DNA from: Moniliella sp. 'wahieum'
Taxonomy: Eukaryota
Assembly (NCBI GenBank): GCA_003971905.1
Contig: RSEE01000025.1
Location: 372,001 to 436,000 of the forward strand
Direction of reading: 5' to 3'
DNA length: 64,000 bases
Shown: positions 411 through 20,622 of the stretch, one piece after another
How the letters are laid out: each line of letters starts with the position of its first letter
Numbering within the stretch: the first letter of the stretch is position 1
Program-made: the position numbers and the translations under genes
Notes under the pieces: generated by a model
The model's input: only the letters and a program-made list of their open reading frames with translations
The model's database searches: none
What the model was told of the DNA's origin: nothing

Positions 411-2231
411 TCAAAGTAGATTGAAAAGGGACGATTGAGCTAGTAGAATTGGATGTTGTTGTTGCCCATGCGGAAATGGCGTCGGCAGGATGCCACTCTG
501 TTTTTGGTATCTGGAATGGGCGTACTGCTCCTTGTCAAGCCCGACTCCGACTCTGAAGCGATGGGGGGGAGATACTATGGTTTCTTCTTGGCGGTTGGGG
601 AGAGGGAGGGGAGAGACTTGGGTGGGGGAAAGAGAACCATCATCATGGTCAAGTCTTGGGGGAAAGCCCGAGATGGATGAGGCGTCCGAGCTGTTTTGTT
701 GCCGTTTGTGCTGGCCCTTTTTGCCCTGCGCCTCTATAGAGGCAGTCGACTTCTCATCTGAGTTTGCAGGGGAGGGTGCGAAGGCGTCCTTGTTTCCAAT
801 TTCACTTGAGCTTGTTGGTTCATCGGGGGCCGGGAAGACACGAGCCGCAGGGGGGGTACCCCCATGCCTTCCCCAGCTTTTTCTTGGTTCCATTGGCAAA
901 CCTTGCTTCCCAGTCCCGTCCTGGCTCACCGGGCGCCCTTGCATCATGATCGGCGACGCGCCGTTTGGCATCAGTAACGAAGTCGTCGAGTTTCCGTTGC
1001 TCGGACTCATCAGCACATCGCCGTGCTGGTGACGGCAAATTAGATCGGCCATGCCCTTGAGTTTTTCGATCCCAGCCGAGGAAGCCAAGTTCGGATGCTG
1101 GGCACGGAGAGTGCACAAGTTGCGCACATATTCGACAATGTCACTAGCTGACACGCCAGCCTTAGGTACCTGGCGTGCCTTGGCATGCCGTTCCTTACAG
1201 TCTTGCAGTAAACACCCGTGTTGGTCTATACTCGATGTTAAGGGTGGCAGGTTGCAGAGCCAAGGATGGGCCAATGCCTCGACAGCCGTCATGCGCTTGG
1301 AGCCTTTGCAGAGACACCTGCGTATGAAATCCTTGGCAGTATCGCTGATGCCCGACCAGTATTCGGGCTCGAACTCAAAATGCATCGCGACAATCTGGCG
1401 AAAGAGACCCGGCTGGTCGGGAGCATAAAACGGGGTGTAGCCAGCCAAAAGGCAGTAAGTCACCACGCCAGCGGACCAAATATCAACCTCGGGCCCATAT
1501 CCTGCACCAAGAAGCACCTCCGGTGCTACGTACTGCGGGCTGCCACATGCAGTGAGCAACAGGCCGTCACCCGGGATGAAGCGGGAAAGACCAAAGTCGC
1601 TAATAGCAATGTTGCTTGGCTCCTGGCGGGTACGAAGAAGAATGTTCTCAGGTTTAATGCGATGGATGATGCCGTGTTGGTGGAGATAGGCAATCGCTTC
1701 AAACATCTGACGAGTAATGTGTCGTGCGTCAAGCTCAGCGTAGTGGACTTTCTCCACCAGGCGGTCAAAAAGTTCTCCGCCGCGGCAGTAGTCCGTCACC
1801 AAAAATACTGCTTCCCTTGTCTCGTAAATGTCATAAAGGCGGATGATGTTGGGGTGGCAGACGCTTTGGAGGATACGGATTTCATCCATGAGCATGCGCT
1901 TGCAGGAGAGAGAGGAAGGAAGAGTCAGGCGGAGGCGCCAAATGCTGGATAGAGAGTGGAGCGGGGAGATAACAGGGGGAGTCGACAGGGAAGGACATAC
2001 CTCATTCTTGTCGTTAAGAGGCCGTTTTGCAATGACCTTCATGGCGCGTTCCTCGCCTGTGGCACGCACGACAACCCGGCGGACCACGGCAAAGCTGCCT
2101 CGTCCCAGAACACCGAACTGGACTTGGTACTTCTCAGTGAGTGCAACAGGCGCGGCTGGTCCGCCGTCGGGCCCAGTTTCGTTGAACCACGTCTGGAAGG
2201 CGGAGGAGATGGGAGGGTCCGATCGCGGCAT
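411..2231 (-). CDS. Ca2+/calmodulin-dependent (CaMK1-like) Ser/Thr protein kinase with a disordered C-terminal tail
   Basis: Kinase motifs LGRGSFAVV, AMKVI, GGELFDRL, DFGLSRF, TACGSPQYVAPE, DIWSAGV, HPWL. Likely start MPRSDPP at 2231. Intron GTATGT..AG at 2000-1899. The catalytic loop reads HRIKPEN (Asp missing). Confidence 0.9.
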   Translation of the reverse strand: MPRSDPPISSAFQTWFNETGPDGGPAAPVALTEKYQVQFGVLGRGSFAVVRRVVVRATGEERAMKVIAKRPLNDKNEVCPSLSTPPVISPLHSLSSIWRLRLTLPSSLSCKRMLMDEIRILQSVCHPNIIRLYDIYETREAVFLVTDYCRGGELFDRLVEKVHYAELDARHITRQMFEAIAYLHQHGIIHRIKPENILLRTRQEPSNIAISDFGLSRFIPGDGLLLTACGSPQYVAPEVLLGAGYGPEVDIWSAGVVTYCLLAGYTPFYAPDQPGLFRQIVAMHFEFEPEYWSGISDTAKDFIRRCLCKGSKRMTAVEALAHPWLCNLPPLTSSIDQHGCLLQDCKERHAKARQVPKAGVSASDIVEYVRNLCTLRAQHPNLASSAGIEKLKGMADLICRHQHGDVLMSPSNGNSTTSLLMPNGASPIMMQGRPVSQDGTGKQGLPMEPRKSWGRHGGTPPAARVFPAPDEPTSSSEIGNKDAFAPSPANSDEKSTASIEAQGKKGQHKRQQNSSDASSISGFPPRLDHDDGSLSPTQVSPLPLPNRQEETIVSPPHRFRVGVGLDKEQYAHSRYQKQSGILPTPFPHGQQQHPILLAQSSLFNLL

Positions 2232-2707: not shown

Positions 2708-4386
2708 CTATGCATCCAAGCCAATAAGCTCCTCCGTCGCCGCCGTCCCCCACACATCCCCTGCACGCTCAGCAACCACCTGGTACACCTCGAAGTGGTG
2801 GTTGACAGACGCCTTTTCGTGGATCGCGTATGGGCCACCCGCTTCTCCGCCGCTTGGCCGCTCTGCGTCCGGCTCGGCTGCTCCGCTTAGCCCCCACTGT
2901 GTGGAGATGGCCGCAAGAAGAAAACCTGCCGTACGCGACTGTGCACCACGCCATGGTGCAAAACGTACAGGGTTCGTGTGTCGTAAAGAGCCAGATTGGT
3001 CAGCAAGTAGTCTGCTCCGTTGCTCTCAGCCCGGCGAGGGCCATCCTCCGGGATCTCGGATGCCTTGCGCGCCTCGGCCACCCCGGATCACATTGAGCAC
3101 CGCATGTCGCAACGGATGCGCGCCGCCACCCGCGTGTCGTGCGCACTCGCCGACAGACCCCCATCATCCCTCTCCTCGAACACGGGGCACACAAAGGCAC
3201 CTACCGGTACTGCCCCTCTTCCTGGGCCGTTGAGCGGCCATAACCGCTTGGGAAACCCCATGGCGTACCCATGCCCTTCGTTCAGGATCAGACCAGAGTA
3301 ACTTTTCTGCTTGGCGATCTACCCACTTGTCCGTCCCAGCTCGGACCGACGTCGGCCATACGCGCTCCATTCGGCCAGACGCGCCTTATTGGGCGCTGTG
3401 GCTGGAATTGTTACGGAACGCAAGTTGTGCCTCATGAACCAAGGTGCATGCTCCTGTAAGCTGGATAGGATCTCGTTTCGGCCAGCCCCTGGACGATCAA
3501 GGCCGATCACAATATCGAGGAACCCGCGTTCTTGCGACGGACGCACCATCTTCAAGTGGCGTGAAGATTCCCATCCATCTTGTGGCGAAGATGCTCCCAA
3601 CATATTTCCAATTGACCGAGTAAATGCGTGACTACTCCACTCAAATTGGCCGGCACAGTCACAATCCACGCCTGCCTCAGTGGCACGGGCATCGTATTTG
3701 GGTCCTGTGCAGCGGTTATCGCCAAAGTTGGAGTGAGTCCCAATCCAGATGGGAGACTTCCCCCTCCTTGTCTCGCCCACGTCCGCTGATTTCACATCTT
3801 CGTTTTCAATCGAAGCGCCGGGACTAGAGGGGCAGCTCTGCTCGCCGCCAAGGGCCGCCAGCGCTGCCAGTTCACTTTCTTCGGTAGGCGGAGGCGAAGC
3901 ACGGTCGTGGTCAGGTGGTTCCCACCACATTCTCCCGACACCATAAGAAATACACAGTTCCTCCCCCGCAGCGATGGGTCTGGCGGTAGTGAAGGAAATG
4001 GTGTTTTGCTCCATGTTGCGCCGCCAGGAAACATTGGGCTGAGTGTGGTGATTAAAAAGAGAGCCCATTCCGAGAGCAAGGGCCATGTCCGACTTGCCCC
4101 CGGCTCGTTTAGACCAGATAAAGGTGTACGAGTCGAGCTGGGTGTACCGCCCATGTTCGTCATACTCGTCGCCATCAAAAAGAAGGATCGGGCTGATCTC
4201 GACGGTTGTGCCGGCTGGCAAAGGACGCGAAGCGTACACGCCGCGACCCGAGGTGGGCGAGGTAAGGACGACGAGGCCATGCCGGTTCATGTGCGGAGTG
4301 CGGGGAAGAGATGGAAGCACCGCCTGGGCCTGGTCTGGCACAGGCTCCAGCCCTGGCTCGGGCGTGGACGCGCGGGCAGGCGCCAT
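2708..4386 (-). CDS. TAD3: SET domain fused to tRNA adenosine-34 deaminase subunit Tad3/ADAT3 (frameshifted in the assembly)
   Basis: SET motifs GRGVYA, SLFNH..PNV, GEELCISYG. These are followed by Tad3 N-domain-like HLKMVR and P..P....EW..YWP, then, across frameshifts, HPLRHAVLN (~3090-3118), YLLTNL, HEPCTFCTMA.VHSRV (~2935-2978) and IHEKASVNHHFEVY. Stop at 2708-2710. Confidence 0.8.
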
Positions 4387-4800
4387 TGGTGGTGGTCAGG
4401 CTGGGCGGCGCACCCAGGAGGAGCGGACAAGCAAAAGAGGACAAATTTGGCTCCCCAAAGAAACATTTCAAAGCCGAAGGACGACGCCACGTGACACTAT
4501 GATCACCGGTCATAACACTTCGGTGATCTTTAGTCGTTGATTGTCAGCTGCTCTGCGCTTACCTCAGCTGGGCATGAAGCATTGCAATTTTGCCATAGTC
4601 GTGTGGCCAGCCGAGGACGTTTTGTGGAGCACTGGCCCCACGCCACCCGTTGCGGGGGTCAGGCTGACCTAAGGCCCAGTAAAATAGGATCCGACAGAGT
4701 GTGATTCAGCGGTGATGTGCGCGACTTCTTCTCTTCCTGCTGTTTCGTCTTCTGCCCGCGGCAAGGAAGTTCGCACGGCACCCACACCACACCGCACTCG

Positions 4801-6260
4801 ATGCCGCTGTGCCCGCCCTGGCCCGCCTCTCGCTCGGCGGCGTGCCCGCGGCGCGTGCCTTCTCCACCACCGCTGTCGGCGCCGCGCCGCGTCCCCCCAG
4901 CTCCCGCCCTCGGCGCGAGAAGCAGCTGCGGCCGCTGCGTGTGTACCCCGTCTTTGAGGAGTGGATCGAGTCGGCGGATGCGGAGCGCTACAAGTTCCCC
5001 CAGGGCCGCGGGCCCCACTGGCTCGGGCGCACCCCCTTCCACTCAACCCGGCTTTCAACCCACCCCCGCCTCTTGGTCAACGCACCCGCACGGAGATGTG
5101 GGACAAGCACCGCAAGGCCCGTCACTTACTCCATCCGCGGCCTCGCCTACATGTACAACCCCCCTCGACCGTGTCACTGCCATTCTGCGCCTCAAGGCTC
5201 TCGAGCAAGAGATGAAGTTTGAGGTGCGTGTCCTTCTCTCGGGTTGCTCTGCCTACTGACACACATGATCTGGTAGGGCCATGCGCTTCAGACCGAATTT
5301 GAAAAGGGTATGGAATACTCGCTCGGGGCAATGGACAAGAAGCCCCATTACCAGATTGAAAAGACCTCAACGCCAAGACCATTACCGGTCCAGAAAGCCT
5401 ACCATCGGAGGTCTTGGAGGAGTCGACGGACCCACCGCGGATCAAGCCACCGCTGTACGAGAACCACCCCGACGATGGTTCTCTCGAGTCGGTCTTGGGC
5501 CCGGCCATGAAGCGTGCGACGAAGCATAGCCGGCAGCAGCGCGCTGATTTGCCTTCTTTTGGTCCCGACCTGGCGACGGAATCCAACGAGCGTCTCTTCC
5601 GCTCGGCTCACCCCGACCGTTATGCCATCAACTTTAAGGACTTTGGCGGTGACTCGTATCTCATGGCCGGTGAGTCGTGCGGGCAATGCGGCACCAGATT
5701 CACAATATGAACTTCCGCAAGGAGCGCATCCGCACTAACAGCTTTACACGGCTGAACCTCAATACGACGAGGAGGGCAACGAAATCATCCCTGTCACAGC
5801 CGCCGACGGCATCCCTCGTGCCGGTGACCGTGGCTGGACAGTGTTGCAGCGCAAGTTTGAAGCGAGTAAGAAGGTGCGCAAGGCCAAGCTTGCCGTGCGC
5901 TACGAGCGCAAGGGTCGTCGTCTCACCATCGACCGCCGGCACCGGGCCAAGTGGGCGGCCTTGCGTCTTGCTGGTAGTCTCAACCGCCATTTCCGCTGGA
6001 GGTTTGGGAAGCATGTCACCAAGAGGGATTCGACCTCACCAAGGCACTCCCGGACCACCTCGACAAGATGCTCATCCTCAAGGCTCTCGACGGCGCCCCC
6101 GCGGTGCGCGAAGAGGCGATCAAGCAACTGGCCGGAGCCAAGCCTCTGCTGGAGAAGGCGATCAAGGAGCACGAAGAGCGACTGGCTCTGCGGCAGCCAA
6201 GAAGGCCAAGGCGCGCCACCCACCCAGGAGAAACCAAAAGAGACTGCCGAGTCTGCATAA
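4801..6260 (+). CDS. MRPS35: Mitochondrial ribosomal small-subunit protein mS45 (Bot1p/Mrps35 family), frameshifted
   Basis: Presequence-like N-terminus (ARAFSTTA); PLNPAFNPPPPL; SIRGLAYMY and RVTAILRLKALE, typical of the Bot1p domain. Intron 5224-5276 (GTGCGT..CTGAC..TAG). The 3' end is uncertain. Confidence 0.7.
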
Positions 6261-6399
6261 CCCTTCGTTCTGTTTGGTTGTCTGCTGTCCCGGCCTGTTG
6301 GGACAACCATGTGCAGAATGTCTGCAACCACACTATGCACGCTATAGTATACTCGCTGCTGGTACCATAGTTCTTTTTCCCATTTTTCATCCGCGCAAC

Positions 6400-8722
6400 C
6401 TAGATGTCCCATTCTTCCTCTTCTTCCCAATCCTCGTCGTCGTCGCGCCCACTCTCAGCCGGGCATCCGGAGCAAAGGCTTGCTCGTACCCTTCGGGCAG
6501 ACCTGCCTCGTATGCCTCCAGTGCGCGCTCGAGGTGTTCATGCACTTCCTTGAGGCCATCCCGCCCGCCCACAATGCCTTCTTCGGCGCCTGTGCCCAGT
6601 CCGTACTGCCCCAACAAGGCTTCAGGACGATTGCTGGCAGCCTTCACAACCGATTGGGCACAACGGAGCATGTATGCCGTCGGCGCCGGAGCTGTAGTGA
6701 GTCCGCTGGCCATTGGAACTGACTGAGGCTGTGCCCGTTCGTCTGCACAGCTGCTTGGGGGGCCATAAGCTTCGCCAGCGCTGCCGGGTCCGACAGGTCA
6801 ATGTTTTTAGGAACGTCCATCACCCCAAATGGCGCGGCTGAATTGACGGAGGCTTGAGCGGGGCGCCGGAACGATCCAGACCACTGAAGATGGCAGGGAA
6901 GCCTTTGGATACATGCCAGTCGGTGGCCAAGCCCACGTAAGAGGAGAACGGTTCTTGCAGCACTTCTCGCTCACCGGACGAAGCAAGATGGCGCAATGCA
7001 TAGATCGCCCGTTCCGTTCTGGTGTACGGGCATCGCGGATGACGAAACTCTGGGAGAAAGGGAGAGCAGTGGTAGCGAGTTCGTTGGCCTTGGATCCATC
7101 GGGAGCACGGAGTAAACCATTGCTCATATCGATCCAATGAGGGCGGAGATGCTGGGCGGCACGCTCTGCCTGCCGCTGAGCTGCCACGTGCGGGGGTAGG
7201 CGCTCAGCCTCATACTGCGCCTCCTTACTGCTTCCCAACCCACGCCGGGCACGGAATTCAGCCAGAGCAGCCTCGACTGGGTCGTTGAGGGCCGCAACTC
7301 GTTTGTCCACAGGTAGGGCGGGCATCGGCATCGCTCCCGCCAAGTTGGCTAGGTGAGTATCCTGACGCCAATTGATCCGAGCCACCAAAGACCCGGCGGA
7401 TGCAGCCCCCACGTTGGAGGAGAACAAACGGGTAGGCAAGGTCGCCGTTTCGAGTGAGCCGCGAGTAAAGAAGCAACGTCGAACATGCTGTTGGGATGGT
7501 AGAATCCCAGTGAATCCTCCTTCACGGTGGGCGGTAACAACGGGGTAAAGACCCCATTCTCGTGCGCGGCCAACATACCCAGTGTAAGGGCAAAGTTATC
7601 GAGCGGGTCATTCCACGACGCAGGGCCCATGGACTCAGTTGATCAATGTCAAAGAGTGTTGCGGGGGTCATACCAAACCGCCAAGGAAGGCGCCAAGTAG
7701 CTCCCCAGCCCATCACAGGCACTTTGGCATATTCGTCGGAAATGTGTTCCATGTAAGCATAAGATAGACCACTGAAGGCGTCAGTGGTGGTGGTTGTCAT
7801 ATTGAATGCCTGGGGGGGTGTAAGAGTCAGCTAAACTCATTCAAAGGAAGGGGGTCGCATACCTGGAGAGAATCGCTGTCTTCGGCCAACCAACGGACTC
7901 GATCCTCAAACACATCGTTTTCGGCGTCCATGTCCTTGGCCACGGCGTAGCCTGCCTCGAACCCATTCATAACCAGAGCCCCCGAGTCATCCTCCTCCTC
8001 GTCCTCATCACTCTCTGCGCCCTGGGATAGTGAGGAACGACAGACTCGGCGGATTTGGCGAGCAGTAGAGCCAGCCATAGAGGAGCACGAGCCTTGCATC
8101 GCTCCCCCTTTCACGGCCACCACTGACTTGGGGTGGAGATAAAACTGTTGGTAATCTGACCAGAGCAAATCTGGCGCTCGGCGTTTTCGTGATCGTGTCA
8201 CTGCAGCGGGTAGAGTTTCCCTCCCCTCCATCATCTTCCTCCCCGCGTTCCGTCATCAGGATCGAAGTCGAGGTCATATTGTTCAGGAACTCTGCGCAGC
8301 TGGCGCGGCACGGGAGAATGCTCCAACTCGTCGTTGCTCGGAAGAAAGGTACGGAAGTCAGGGACAGTGTCAAATAGTTCAGCGCCGATGGCAGCACTTG
8401 CGTTGTGATCGTCCAAGAGCGAATCCTTTTCGCCTGGGCCCACTCGGCCGCGGCTCGACAAGATCATCATCGTAGTGACGCCCGTGCGCTGTGACAATGA
8501 TCCGATCTGATCCTGAACGTCGAATAAGATTGCGCGCGGGTAGAGCTGGGGCGCAGAATCCAGCCCTGTGCTAAAACTGGGGCCCTCGGCGAGAGCGACA
8601 GCCGAGTCGACGATCTCATCGTCCTGGGAGCCGAGGTAAGCGGCCTGCTCGTTAAAGAAGGATGTGGTGATGTGGTTGGCGAACGTGCCAAACGAAAGGT
8701 AGATGGTCTCGTGCGTCGGCAT
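6400..8722 (-). CDS. DML1: Misato/DML1 tubulin-like protein (mitochondrial inheritance), frameshifted
   Basis: N-terminus MPTHETIYLSFGTFANHITTSFFNEQ; YPRAILFD; LWSDYQQFYLHPKS; VFEDRVRWLAEDSDSLQ|G; DAFSG. Intron ~7810-7862. Acidic C-terminus ending WDI*. Confidence 0.85.
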
Positions 8723-8933: not shown

Positions 8934-11900
8934 ATGGGCGACGTGTCCATCGATGCTGGCGCACGTCAAGCGCTCCTCACTGTCATCAAAGCAACATCTT
9001 CCAGCCCCGCTTGGCTGGATGAGGCGCGTAATCAACTAGATGAGTGGGAGACCAACCCTGGCTTCTGGCGGGTCCTGCTGGACATCTGCTTTGATCGCCA
9101 ACTCGTCTTGCCTGTCGAACTAGTGCCCGAAGTGGCGGCTTCTGCTGAGGCAATGCAGCGCGCCAGGCGAGTGTGCGGCTCTCGGGGATGATCCGCTTCA
9201 AGAACGGATTGAGCGCTTCTGGCGCATGCGCGTCGTCCGCCGCGTGACCATCACGATTTCTACGGAGGAGAAGGACGTGCTACGCAACATGCTCTGGCGC
9301 GCCCTCGACGAGCCCGATCGTGCCATCGCGCTCCAGGCCATCATCTCTATTGCTAAAATTGCTCGCCACGACTTCCCCCGCGCATGGCCCGACCTGTTTA
9401 CCCGGCTGCAAGAGTGCATTGTGGAGGCCCATGGCCAACTGAGCCTGCTCGGCCCCGAGCCCATTGCAGATCCCGAGGCCCCTGAACTGGCCTCGCGCCG
9501 CCAGCAGCATTCCCTCCGACTGCTGCGTTCGGTGGATACACTGCAGCGCACGTTTAAAGAACTCTCTACAGTCCGCATCATGGCAGGCAAGGTCAAGATG
9601 ACCGAGGTGTGTCCCCCTTCCCTCCCCTTCCCCCTCCCCTATCGTTACATGCCTCTTCCCTCCCCTTCCACCTCCTCCATCGCTACATGCCCGACTGTAT
9701 CCTGACTTGATTTTTCTCAGCTCGCCAACGCCCTGCTGCCGACGATCCAGCCCATGTTCTCCCAGTACTTTACCGAGACCTTCCCTGTAGCCGTCTTTGG
9801 TTCGGGCTCGCCCCAGCAAGTCGCTGCCTGGTCCCAAACACCAACCCGTGCGGCCCAAGTGCGCACGGCACACCTGTTCCTCAAGTCGCTTCGCTGGCTT
9901 GTCGTTTCTGACAGTGGCATGCTGAGTGCCCATGCGGTTGGCGCGCGCGCATCGGATGGCGCCGCATCGGTCAACTTGGCCCAGGCATTTATGCAGTCCA
10001 CCCCCCAGTTTCTCTCGACTCTCAGCGAGGCTAGGCGCCAGTACATTGCTGTCCTTCGATCTCAGGGAGCGGGTGGGGATTCGCTGCTGGCCTTGCTCAC
10101 CAAGCATCTGCTTGCTTTTGGCAAGATCTTCCTGGCCCTCCTTGCGCCCCCCCAGAGCAAAGCCGCCGCCTGGCCTGGCTGGATCGACATCGTGATGTGG
10201 TACTGGGGCCAAGCCCGCCAGGTCGCACTCACCTCGCCTCATCCCTCATTGACCAACGTAGATCCCAGTGCGTTGTCCGAAACGCCGTCCAAGTTTGTGG
10301 TACAAGCCTTGCTGCTGCTCAAGGAGAGCCTGGGACGATGGAACCATGACTTGCCGTCTGAGGTGAACAATGGAGAGTTTGTCACCGACGCTGTCCAGTT
10401 GCTGGTAAGCAAGCTGATGCTTCTCAGTCCGTCGGAACTCGAGGAGTGGCAAGCCGACCCGGAGGCTTGGCTCGTTGGCGAGGCTCAAAAGCAGAAGAGT
10501 TTACCCTCGAAATTCGTCCTTCGGCCGAACGGCTGCTGATGGTACTTGCCGACAAAACCAAGCCCAAGTACTTTGTTGGTAGACAGGTCCTGTCTCTCTT
10601 TGAGCAGTCGGTTTCTCTGGGTACCGACTTGAACTCGATTCTGACCCGGGATGCCATCTATGCCGCGTTGGGCCGGATGCGGGACTACCTCCCGATCGTC
10701 ATGCCGGGATGGGAACCCGACCCGGACGACGAAGCCGAGCTGATGTTTGATGTGTCCAAGGTAGTTAGTTCGAGGTTGATTCAAGAACTGTCCATCGGGC
10801 CCGAAGCTGGAGCATTGTGGGTGATTGTCCGACGGAGGATCACATGGGTGCTGGATACGTTTAGCGACTATGTGGGGGCAGCGGATCGGGTGGGGATGTA
10901 CCAGGTCTTGGTTGGGCTTTTGGGCGACGTGCCCGGCGTGACCGACTTGGCTGTCCGTCTCTCCTCGGCCCGCTGTCTTGGCTCCTGGGCCGACGCGCTC
11001 GAGTTCAACCCCCAGGACTTTCTGCCCTTTCTCGAGCCGGCCGTGCTGCGGCTTGTGGCCCTGGCCGCATCCGAGGAGCTGGCCGAGATGGATTCGGTGC
11101 AGGTGTGCACCAATGCGCTGTCCATGTTGATTGAACGGATGGGAGCACGGGTGGCACCTTTGCTCCCGCAGCTGGTTAGTGTCGTTCCTCAGCTGTGGAA
11201 CCAACCTGACCCCGAGGTCAAGGTCAAGCCCGGTCTGCTTACCTTTGTTGGCAAACTGGTCCGGGCCGTGGAGCTGGTGTATGCTGGAGGCGGGATAGAT
11301 GCCCAGTTGGAGCCAGTCCACCTACTTGTCCGCGATCTGGTTCGCAGCAGCTTGGCGCCCGACTTGGCCGCCGAACTGGTCAAAGATGCCTTGCTGCTTT
11401 GGTTCCGGGCGGTGCACAGTGCGCCCCAGATGAGCGCACCGCTGTTTGATCTGCTGGCCTTGGCACCGTCGCTGCTGGAGAAGATTGATGAGGCACCGGA
11501 CACGTGCCGGATCATTGAGCAGTCGGCCCTGCTGGCGCCGCAGGAAGTGTTGCAAGCGCATGGGCTCGACATTTTCCGTGCGTTTTTTACCATCCTGTCC
11601 GACGCCCACTCGCCGGTTGTGCTGGCGCCACTCGGTACCATCGATCTCATGCTCCAGGCGGCGAGTGCGGCTGGGTGTGGAGTGGAAACGTGGTTGGGTC
11701 CGTTGCAGGAATCCAAATTGTTCGGCGTGCTGGTCGCCTCGTTCCTGCGCATTCGCGAAACCCATGTGGTGGCCTCAACGTTTGCCAGTACGCTGGCGCG
11801 GATTGTCGTGTTGATTCCTTCGCCCCAGCGCGTGCTTGCGTTGCAGTCGGTGGCGCCGCTGCTGGACATTGCCCCTACGGCGGATGCGGTGGGGGCAAAG

Positions 11901-12396
11901 TTGCTGGTACCGCTGCTGGACCAGACGAGCAAAACGTTTGAGCACACCTCTTCGGCCAAGAAACGCAAGCTGGGTGCGATGGTGTTGGCCGCGTGGCTGG
12001 AAGGCGTGGCAGATGCTCCGCCCAGCCCGGAGCTGGTCCAAGCCTTCTGTTCCCACCTGGCGCTCGTTGTGCCGATCTGGAGCGATGTGATGGGCGAAGT
12101 GCGGGAGCATCGGGGCGAGGCACAGGCCAGCTACCTGGCCCAGCTCACGTCCCCACTGAGCTCGGCGGGGTGAGCTGGAGGAGGACGAGGAGGACTGGTT
12201 GGAAGATACGAGTCCGGGCGCGGCGCGCCTGCGCAACTTGGCCGCGGCAGATACGGTGGTGGTGCAGACGGACTTGGTACAGTACCTGCGCTTTGCGCTT
12301 CAGCATGCCCAGGCCGCCTATCCCGAGCTGGTCCAGGCGGGGCTCAACGCGTTGGACCCTACGATGCTAGAGGTGTTGATGCAGGACCTCAATTAG
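8934..12396 (+). CDS. KAP120: Importin-11/Kap120-like karyopherin beta (HEAT repeats), frameshifted
   Basis: IBN_N-like start (QLDEWETNPGFW, FKNGIERFWR); IAKIARHDFPRAWPDLF; ELEEWQADPEAW; IRPSAERL; RDAIYAALG; VRRRITWV; DLAVRLSSA. Intron 9607-9720. Confidence 0.85.
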
Positions 12397-14052
12397 CGCC
12401 GGCATCTAAACTACTTCGCGTAGGTCACCAAATTCATATATACCTCACCTCTTTCCTACCCCAAGCAGACATGTCCAATGGGCCCGGCTACAAACCACAA
12501 ACCAAGAAAAGCAGGCAAAGATGGGTGTGCTAGTGCAGCAGAGGAAGACGGGAGGGGGCAAGGCGGCAGGTTGGATTGAGTTGGGTTCGGTCCAGGGATC
12601 CTGCAGATAGGAATGCCCAGGGGCCAGGGCCAGAGACCAAAGATGGATATAGCGATGAAGATGACGACAGAGATGGAGGTGGGAATGGAGATGGAGATAC
12701 GGATGAGCAAGGGGCCAACAGCCATGCGCCGGGACGACTGGATCGGGTGGCAGATACGCCAAGCAAGCAGGTTAGGAGATGTGGATGCCACGGTCGTAGG
12801 CCGATACGGCAGCGTGACGGTGTCCGCGCGTAGAACGGTCGAGATGATCGAGTCCCAAGACGAAGCTTGGCCGGGTCCCATCCCAGTTTCCCCCCGATCT
12901 GGTGAGCCAAGAGGTCGTACGAAAGATTGCGGTGCAAGGACAGGTTCAACTGGGTCGTACTCGTCTGCTTGGCCGCCGGCTTGACCACTAGGTTGTTGAA
13001 TAAAGCGCACTTGCTCCAAACTTTGCGATTGTTTGAGCCAAGATACAAGCTGCCTCAAACTTATTTGAAACTGGTTTCGGGGTATGCCTCAGACCAAACC
13101 TAGCATCCGTTCCCCTTTCTATTGCGTTTCTATAGAGAGATACTCTAGACCCCTTTTGTTACATGCTTTGGTCCCATATAAGGGCAAAGCCAATCCATGT
13201 TTCTTTGGGACCCACCGGTCCCGCGCAGTGAGAAGTGCCTGTGTGGTATAGCTTCCCCTTCACCAACTCTCTCGATCACCCTCGACATCTCAACATAGGT
13301 CAACCTTGTTGGCCAAAAAGTCATAAAACTCGAGCGCGGTAGTGTAACGACCTTGGGCGTGAGCCTCCTCCACCTCGGATGGTGGCATGAATTCTTGGAA
13401 GCAAATGATGTCTCCAGACTGGATCTCGGCCTCAGAAAAGCTGCTGGTATGTTCATTCATTGCCTCAACCATCGTTGGCTTGGTCTCCTCATACAGCCAG
13501 AGCGGCGCAGTGAGAGGTCGCTGGATCAGTGCGTTGATCACAGGCACCAATGAGCCCACGGGATTGCTCTGCTTGACATATGTGCTTGAAAATCCGAGGA
13601 GCGTTTGGTCCTGGACACTGAAGCGCTTGAGGAAGACCAAGGTCCAGTCCGGGTCTTGCTGCAGCGCCTGCGGCGGAAGGGTCGGGAGGTCAAACTCGAT
13701 AAACAACCGCAGCTCTTGCGACCGGCCCGCATACCGTTCCCGCACTTTGTCAATCGTCAGCTCCGTCTTGTCCGGCACGATGCATTCTGGGCGAACGGTC
13801 TGGTTTTGCCGGTTAGCCAACACCCATACACGGAAGTCGGATGCGCGAACATTAAAATGCTGGGCAATCTGCTCTTTGACCGCTTGGAACAGGTCTGTCT
13901 TGCGCACTTTGAGACTGGGTACGTCTACAAGCGACTGGGTGCGCCGGTTGTTGAGTGCCAAATCAAGCCCTGGTATTGACGGAAGGTAGCCTCTGTGATC
14001 AGGCGAACGTTGAGGAAAAAGTGTTGCTCGTGCAGCTCCCGCCCTTGGCCTC
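12388..14052 (-). pseudogene. Degenerate duplicate of the USP7/UBP15 3' region (UBL domains plus 3' UTR)
   Basis: Near-identical direct copies: 12388-12861 = 16489-16970; 12858-12993 = 17795-17930; 13296-14052 = 17926-18681. Carries an internal 828-bp deletion and an LTR insertion. Confidence 0.9.
12994..13295. mobile_element. Solo LTR (302 bp), copia-like termini
   Basis: Starts TGTTGA and ends TCAACA (TG..CA inverted termini). Flanked by the 5-bp direct repeat TAGGT (12989-12993 and 13296-13300). The empty site with a single TAGGT is present in the intact copy at 17926-17930. Confidence 0.9.

Positions 14053-16880: not shown

Positions 16881-20622
<3,742 letters not shown>

Follow-up and report, generated by a model that had tools for sequence, protein, structure and literature searches.

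The window analysed here is a stretch of 64,000 nucleotides from Moniliella sp. 'wahieum' (NCBI GenBank assembly GCA_003971905.1, contig RSEE01000025.1, positions 372,001 to 436,000 of the forward strand). On its minus strand it contains a gene in which a SET domain, a Tad3/ADAT3 N-domain and a deaminase domain follow each other colinearly, from an ATG at 4386 to a stop codon at 2710-2708. The best explanation of the data as a whole, to which we give a probability of about 0.78, is that this gene is the organism's copy of the basidiomycete-type Tad3 (ADAT3), encoding one SET-Tad3 polypeptide of about 560 residues. The architecture as such is already known, in print since 2011 and in public annotations. 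We add the placement of the SET half in the Set7 family, which has a solved relative, and the near-invariance of the SET catalytic motifs in 28 fused proteins. In addition, we describe the fused form in basidiomycetes versus the named stand-alone relatives from Mucoromycota-type fungi, and we present evidence that the frameshifts in this gene are assembly errors, with a local excess that is unexplained.

Both halves of the gene can be recognised directly in the window. A stop-to-stop open reading frame (ORF) of 358 amino acids at 3319-4395 on the minus strand matches the SET family PF00856 over residues 50-152 (E value 6.4e-15, 55.9 bits against a cut-off of 22.4), and the motifs GRG, NH and EELCISYG are all found, which bears out the compact SET domain claimed by the initial annotation. 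The hallmarks of Tad3 (HLK, WP, HPLRHAV, HEPCxxC, VHSR and NHHF) are likewise all found, scattered across the three minus frames. HPLRHAV (3118-3098) and HEPCxxC (2978-2958) are among them, in line with the earlier description of the HAV and PCxxC motifs as following across small frameshifts. The closest relatives, P0001 (563 amino acids, 62% identity) and P0002 (619 amino acids, 52% identity), are uninterrupted proteins spanning both halves. Our protein-to-DNA alignments allowed codon matches, gaps, frame changes of one or two bases and GT..AG introns of 45-400 nucleotides. With P0001, 359 of 509 aligned codons were identical, namely 126 of 159 SET codons and 233 of 350 Tad3 codons, a similarity that is far beyond chance. 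The gene has the following features:

2708-4386, minus strand: whole SET-Tad3 coding region, 1679 nucleotides, from frameshift-aware alignment to P0001, P0002 and P0003; colinear with homologues of 563-619 amino acids; no intron
4384-4386, minus strand: start codon ATG, with an N-terminal extension like that of P0002
3940-4248, minus strand: SET domain (Set7 family), Pfam PF00856 with E value 6.4e-15, PDB 5h6z with E value 2.4e-35
4048-4053, minus strand: NH motif of the SET domain; among the fused proteins the Asn occurs in 28/28 and the His in 27/28
3943-3945, minus strand: Tyr of the EELxIxYG motif, kept in 28/28 fused proteins
3767-3939, minus strand: SET-Tad3 linker, counterpart of P0001 residues 118-169, with a predicted local distance difference test score (pLDDT) below 50 in the model
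3272-3766, minus strand: Tad3/ADAT3 N-terminal domain; P0001 230-365 aligned to mouse ADAT3 69-204
3558-3550, minus strand: HLK motif of the Tad3 N-domain
3358-3353, minus strand: WP motif of the Tad3 N-domain
2711-3271, minus strand: deaminase-fold domain and C-terminal tail; PF00383-equivalent part at 3271-2914, mapped from P0001 333-470 (Pfam E value 4e-9)
3098-3118, minus strand: HPLRHAV, with the zinc-ligand His (3106-3104) and a Val (3100-3098) at the Glu position of active deaminases
2958-2978, minus strand: HEPCxxC zinc motif, Cys at 2969-2967 and 2960-2958 in the alignment with P0001
2708-2710, minus strand: stop codon TAG

The search for homologues with the 358-amino-acid ORF yielded 37 proteins, 25 of which carry PF00856 and PF00383 in one chain of 439-619 amino acids. 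Four more long homologues (524-605 amino acids) were flagged as SET only; P0028, one of these, has PF00383 at E 3.6e-5 on rescanning. The others are four short stand-alone SET proteins of the Mortierellomycota type and four weak matches. Fused proteins with a named source come from Malassezia (several of them annotated as Tad3), Armillaria, Mycena, Panaeolus, Agrocybe, Pisolithus, Arthromyces, Termitomyces and Meredithblackwellia, and the fusion is present in every named basidiomycete match, covering Ustilaginomycotina-type, Agaricomycete and Pucciniomycotina records. The reading of the gene as a SET-Tad3 fusion, proposed in the initial annotation, is thus upheld by the 25 two-domain homologues, including the uninterrupted P0001 and P0002. 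The best named matches of both the SET-Tad3 gene and a USP7-type gene in the window are from Basidiomycota (Malassezia, Ustilago, Ceraceosorus and Agaricomycetes) at 37-54% identity.

An earlier computational mention of this architecture in basidiomycetes, to which the initial annotation had referred, does exist. The available text of Iyer, Zhang, Rogozin and Aravind 2011 (Nucleic Acids Research 39:9473; PMC3239186) describes a basidiomycete SET-Tad3 fusion with Cryptococcus CNBC2910 as the example. As described there, it shares with the window gene the N-terminal SET domain followed by Tad3, the distribution at the level of the phylum and a Tad3 without the Glu of HxE. The same text puts forward two hypotheses, methylation of the editing proteins, or methylation of an amine-bearing base or a part in the synthesis of modified bases. 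The possible link between methylation and I34 editing suggested in the initial annotation is one that these authors had already raised. Nothing architectural in that description differs from the window gene, which is another orthologue, here assembled with 9-10 frame changes. Our literature search on Tad3/ADAT3 together with a SET domain, basidiomycetes and Cryptococcus did not find a functional study of the fusion.

The SET part matched Set7 of Schizosaccharomyces pombe (PDB 5h6z/5ww0) with an E value of 2.4e-35 across the whole domain. The next PDB match was vSET of Paramecium bursaria Chlorella virus 1 (PBCV-1; 4e-10), and every other SET class had an E value of 0.17 or worse. In Foldseek, the AlphaFold model of P0001 superposed on 5h6z with a template modelling score (TM) of 0.82 and 2.1 Å. 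We class the SET half as a Set7-family minimal SET domain that is closer to Set7 than to other SET classes. With S. pombe Set7 it shares the minimal SET without pre- or post-SET zinc modules and the motifs GRG, NH and EELCISYG; Set7 is free-standing (a 169-residue chain in the PDB record), whereas the SET domain in the window is fused to Tad3. The PBCV-1 vSET (1n3j, 3kma) has the same minimal SET fold (E 4e-10, TM 0.85), but it is a viral, free-standing H3K27 methyltransferase and far more distant in sequence than Set7.

The GxG, NH and ELxxxY motifs of SET domains serve the binding of S-adenosylmethionine (AdoMet) and catalysis. All of these AdoMet-binding and catalytic motifs are present in the SET domain of the window, and its Tyr at 3943-3945 in EELxIxYG is what we take to be the usual catalytic Tyr of SET enzymes. 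S. pombe Set7 itself is, going by the title of the work of Shen et al. 2019, reportedly an H3K37 methyltransferase required for gametogenesis.

For the second half of the gene, comparisons were made with the intact relative P0001. It matched mouse ADAT3 (7nz7_B, 4.9e-16) with one stretch over the N-domain and another over the deaminase; the values were 3.8e-11 for Trypanosoma brucei ADAT3, 2.9e-9 for yeast Tad3 and a weaker 1e-6 for ADAT2. P0001 is closer to mouse ADAT3 than to ADAT2 or TadA, and in the Foldseek search with its model the ADAT3 chains of mouse, yeast and T. brucei took the top six places. The deaminase half is Tad3-type: the zinc ligands are kept, the catalytic Glu is replaced by Val, and an ADAT3-type N-domain, of which the window retains the invariant HL and WP columns, is located in front. 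The match over the N-domain and the deaminase domain, the Val at the Glu position and the zinc ligands are shared with ADAT3/Tad3 of mouse (7nz7/7nz9), yeast (7bv5) and T. brucei (8aw3), which differ in being without a SET domain. Unlike those ADAT3 proteins, the basidiomycete fused proteins have low-complexity inserts in the deaminase domain (P0001 415-436, pLDDT below 50). As background, inactivity of a Tad3 via an E-to-V change is described for FgTad3 of Fusarium graminearum in the available text of PMC11156358, a review on editing in fungi, which also reports that mRNA editing during sexual development goes along with short, stage-specific isoforms of FgTAD2/3.

The AlphaFold model of P0001 was built with a 28-sequence alignment and has a mean pLDDT of 72.8. 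The SET domain (residues 1-117) as well as the Tad3 N-domain and the deaminase domain are modelled with confidence, and the 52 residues from 118 to 169 have a pLDDT below 50. With this long low-confidence linker, the model gives no sign of a fixed contact between SET and Tad3. A complex prediction for P0001 residues 1-135 (SET) against 170-563 (Tad3 body) scored 0.00; it was run without controls and counts neither way.

Conservation was counted in alignment A1 of 28 fused proteins, from which P0032 and the weak matches P0034-P0037 were excluded. In the SET domain N80, E111, L112 and Y116 are found in 28/28 and H81 in 27/28 proteins. Of the zinc ligands of Tad3, H394 is present in 28/28 rows, and C452 and C455 in all 26 rows that cover them. 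The position of the catalytic Glu (396) never holds E; 21 of the proteins have V there, 3 have I, 3 have A and 1 has S, in agreement with the Val (3100-3098) that the initial annotation had pointed out in the window. Since the SET motifs and the Tad3 zinc ligands are conserved in these 28 fused proteins, both halves are under constraint. The SET half looks catalytically competent from its motifs.

A further search with the SET part only, limited to proteins of 96-307 amino acids, gave 42 matches, 33 of which were used in a tree. The named stand-alone matches among the 42 are from Mortierellomycota and Mucoromycota, together with one record labelled as a liverwort, and no named basidiomycete stand-alone Set7 was present among these short matches. 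Among the 60 SET domains of a quickly built, unrooted tree, 29 stand-alone rows group together (SH-like approximate likelihood-ratio test, SH-aLRT, 94). Because four short rows nest among the fused rows, the label fused or stand-alone needs three changes on the tree, two of them forced by well-supported branches. Three of the nested short proteins come from contigs of 953-4028 bp, the fourth from a 54.8-kb contig, and the source of one names it ADAT3; these four proteins may be fragments of fused genes. The picture fits a single fusion early in Basidiomycota, although the tree falls short of proving or excluding a single origin.

In the mechanism that we propose, about 50 flexible residues would link a Set7-family SET domain to a complete Tad3, in which an N-domain that presents the tRNA is followed by a deaminase domain that binds zinc but is catalytically dead. 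By analogy with the ADAT2/3 enzymes of yeast, mouse and trypanosomes, the Tad3 half would pair with Tad2 to convert adenosine 34 (A34) to inosine 34 (I34) in tRNAs. The SET half would, going by its family, be an active AdoMet-dependent protein-lysine methyltransferase of the Set7 type, which the fusion would keep in a 1:1 ratio to the Tad2/Tad3-tRNA complex and, through its tether, within reach of it. As to the target of the SET domain, we tentatively infer, as a best guess with somewhat less than even odds, that it might be a lysine of the editing complex itself or of a protein coming into contact with it. Histone H3K37, which is suggested by the homology to S. pombe Set7, seems a less probable target.

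The alternative that survives best starts from the same intact fusion. The two halves might work in unrelated pathways, the SET domain methylating H3K37 like Set7 and the fusion merely ensuring its co-expression with Tad3. The close relationship of the SET half to S. pombe Set7 (E 2.4e-35, TM 0.82) speaks for this possibility, as do the description of Set7 as an H3K37 methyltransferase, known to us from a title only, and the long low-confidence linker in a model in which a fixed SET-Tad3 contact is not seen. It is countered by the retention of the fusion in all named basidiomycete matches and by the lack of a named stand-alone basidiomycete Set7 among the 42 short matches. Such a pattern would not be expected of a functionally neutral linkage, which is an argument from conservation, and we consider separate pathways unlikely, although they deserve to be kept in mind.

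The reading of the gene as one polypeptide has to deal with the state of its Tad3 half. To follow the homologues through this part, 10 frame changes are needed with P0001 and 9 each with P0002 and P0003, all of them between 3792 and 2888, and seven of the sites agree to within 12 nucleotides across the three alignments:

3767-3768, minus strand: frame change 1, one base missing; P0002 puts a single change at 3792, P0003 at 3765
3717-3718, minus strand: frame change 2, one base missing; called for by P0001 only, which is the closest homologue
3625-3626, minus strand: frame change 3, one base missing; restores the frame of the ATG
3359-3360, minus strand: frame change 4, one base missing; directly before the WP motif
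3226, minus strand: frame change 5, one extra or two missing bases; 3217-3229 depending on the homologue
3122-3123, minus strand: frame change 6, one base missing; directly before HPLRHAV
3082, minus strand: frame change 7, in a G run, one extra or two missing bases; P0003 puts it at 3034
2991, minus strand: frame change 8, one extra or two missing bases; before HEPC
2947-2948, minus strand: frame change 9, one base missing; loss of the conserved Leu that separates PCxxC-MA from VHSR
2888-2889, minus strand: frame change 10, one base missing

Three of these changes (at about 3768, 3718 and 3626) fall inside the 358-amino-acid ORF, where the Tad3 N-domain is therefore in the wrong frame for about 46 codons. 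The ORF stays open because this out-of-frame stretch happens to be stop-free. The initial annotation had the SET domain run into the Tad3 N-domain in one ORF; this holds insofar as no stop lies between them, but the openness of the frame is partly an accident. Introns were considered and rejected as a cause of the frame changes: although GT..AG introns of 45-400 nucleotides were permitted, none was chosen, and at most one homologous residue is missing per junction. In a plot of the GC content at third codon positions (GC3), the signal was too weak for following the frames.

The 9-10 frame changes are, with considerable confidence, most likely errors of a deletion-prone assembly, and the real gene is probably intact, because the homology-guided path contains no stops, the conserved columns are kept, there is no excess in rate, and control genes in the window are broken too. 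The other possibility is that the Tad3 half is a genuine pseudogene, in which case the indels would be real, only the SET part would be made and an intact Tad3 would be located elsewhere in the genome; we regard this as improbable. A decayed sequence is hard to reconcile with the guided path along the ancestral frame, which has 0 stops in 358 codons, while the other two frames of the same bases contain 13 and 7. It also fits poorly with the columns that are at least 90% conserved in the 28 fused proteins, as the window keeps 33/33 of them in the SET part and 46/49 in the Tad3 part; the three that are lost are an L to V change, a V to I change and one Leu exactly at a frame-change site. Nor are lineage-specific amino-acid changes in excess: relative-rate counts in the Tad3 half gave 22 window-unique versus 25 P0001-unique changes with P0002 as outgroup (p 0.77) and 14 versus 18 with P0003 (p 0.60). 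In the SET half the corresponding counts were 12 versus 8 (P0002 as outgroup) and 5 versus 8 (P0003 as outgroup). The Tad3 half is without discernible acceleration of amino-acid change relative to its intact sister P0001. Furthermore, where deletion of Tad3 has been attempted in fungi it proved essential, as the available text of PMC11156358 describes for TAD2 and TAD3 of F. graminearum.

Indels of the same kind disrupt conserved control genes in the window, which again argues against a pseudogene. The USP7-type gene at 16884-20471 (minus strand) needs 4 frame changes in 3.6 kb and no intron, with 810 of 1183 codons identical to P0038, and its UCH domain is split across abutting ORFs, consistent with these 4 frame changes. 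For the importin-11 gene at 8952-12402 (plus strand), alignment to a 71%-identical homologue takes 2 frame changes and alignment to a full-length homologue takes 4 (2.6-3.4 kb). The frame changes in the control genes comprise 1-2 bases, and no or one intron was used.

Several observations weigh against assembly errors, and some of them would suit a pseudogene. The density of frame changes in the Tad3 half is 9.2 per kb (10 in 1.09 kb) versus 1.14 per kb in the controls, which is about eightfold (Poisson P about 8e-7). The SET half and the adjacent 2.2-kb kinase ORF contain zero frame changes; all of those in the gene are located 3' of the SET domain, which 10 events would produce with a chance of 0.014. 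In GC content and homopolymer density the cluster does not differ from the SET half or the controls, hence the composition does not account for it. Moreover, the relative-rate test registers nothing but amino-acid change, and with 47 and 32 informative sites its power is limited. Our guess is that the cluster represents a patch of poor coverage or polishing. On balance we hold to assembly errors, and the advice of the initial annotation to polish the sequence was right, as the frame changes behave like errors. This assembly has about one frameshift per kb in conserved genes, with local clusters of up to nine per kb. Caution is due wherever this genome seems to show pseudogenes, split genes or missing catalytic residues.

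That SET and Tad3 are adjacent genes with separate transcripts, the apparent fusion being a read-through artefact, is hardly credible, since the window has no stop between the SET domain and the Tad3 N-domain, the spacer comprises only about 170 nucleotides and is coding-like, P0001 (563 amino acids) and P0002 (619 amino acids) are single uninterrupted proteins, and both domains occur together in 25 of the 37 homologues. A scan of this inter-domain spacer for bacterial-type promoters and terminators gave 0 sites, but this type of scan is not meaningful for a fungus.

Several further observations concern the surroundings of the gene. The middle of the USP7 gene has a partial second copy at 12858-12993 and 13296-14052 (minus strand), corresponding to 17795-17930 and 17926-18681. 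This copy is 97-98% identical over about 0.9 kb, has an interruption of about 300 bp, contains a stop and is without the UCH domain; a pseudogene fragment from a recent duplication and a duplication created by the assembly are the two options. In the neighbouring CAMK-type kinase the sequence at 1644-1676 (minus strand) is HGIIHR-IKPEN, so that the catalytic HRD motif lacks its Asp, as though three bases had dropped out; this may be a further assembly deletion rather than the mark of a pseudokinase. In the spacer between the stop of the SET-Tad3 gene and the start of the kinase, short runs of 7-base units of the TGATCGA/TGATCAT type are found at 2395-2480. The divergent upstream neighbour at 4705-6723 (plus strand) consists of several overlapping ORFs in different frames. 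A Pfam search with seven ORFs of this region found no family at an E value of 0.01 or better, and it is probably another frameshifted gene of unknown family.

With the assignment to Set7, the function of the fused SET domain becomes addressable, as the conserved Asn-His and Tyr, H3K37 and Tad2/Tad3 are concrete points to examine. The fusion might also be read as a Rosetta stone for the whole family, an idea that is speculative and that we think has only a small chance of being correct. Set7-type enzymes, including the free-standing ones of fission yeast and Mucoromycota, would then have the Tad2/Tad3 machinery or its contacts as their physiological substrate and tune the formation of wobble inosine or ADAT-driven RNA editing, for instance in sexual development, and H3K37 would be a secondary or in vitro substrate. 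For fission yeast this leads to a reciprocal prediction, namely that Set7 and Tad2/Tad3 may interact.

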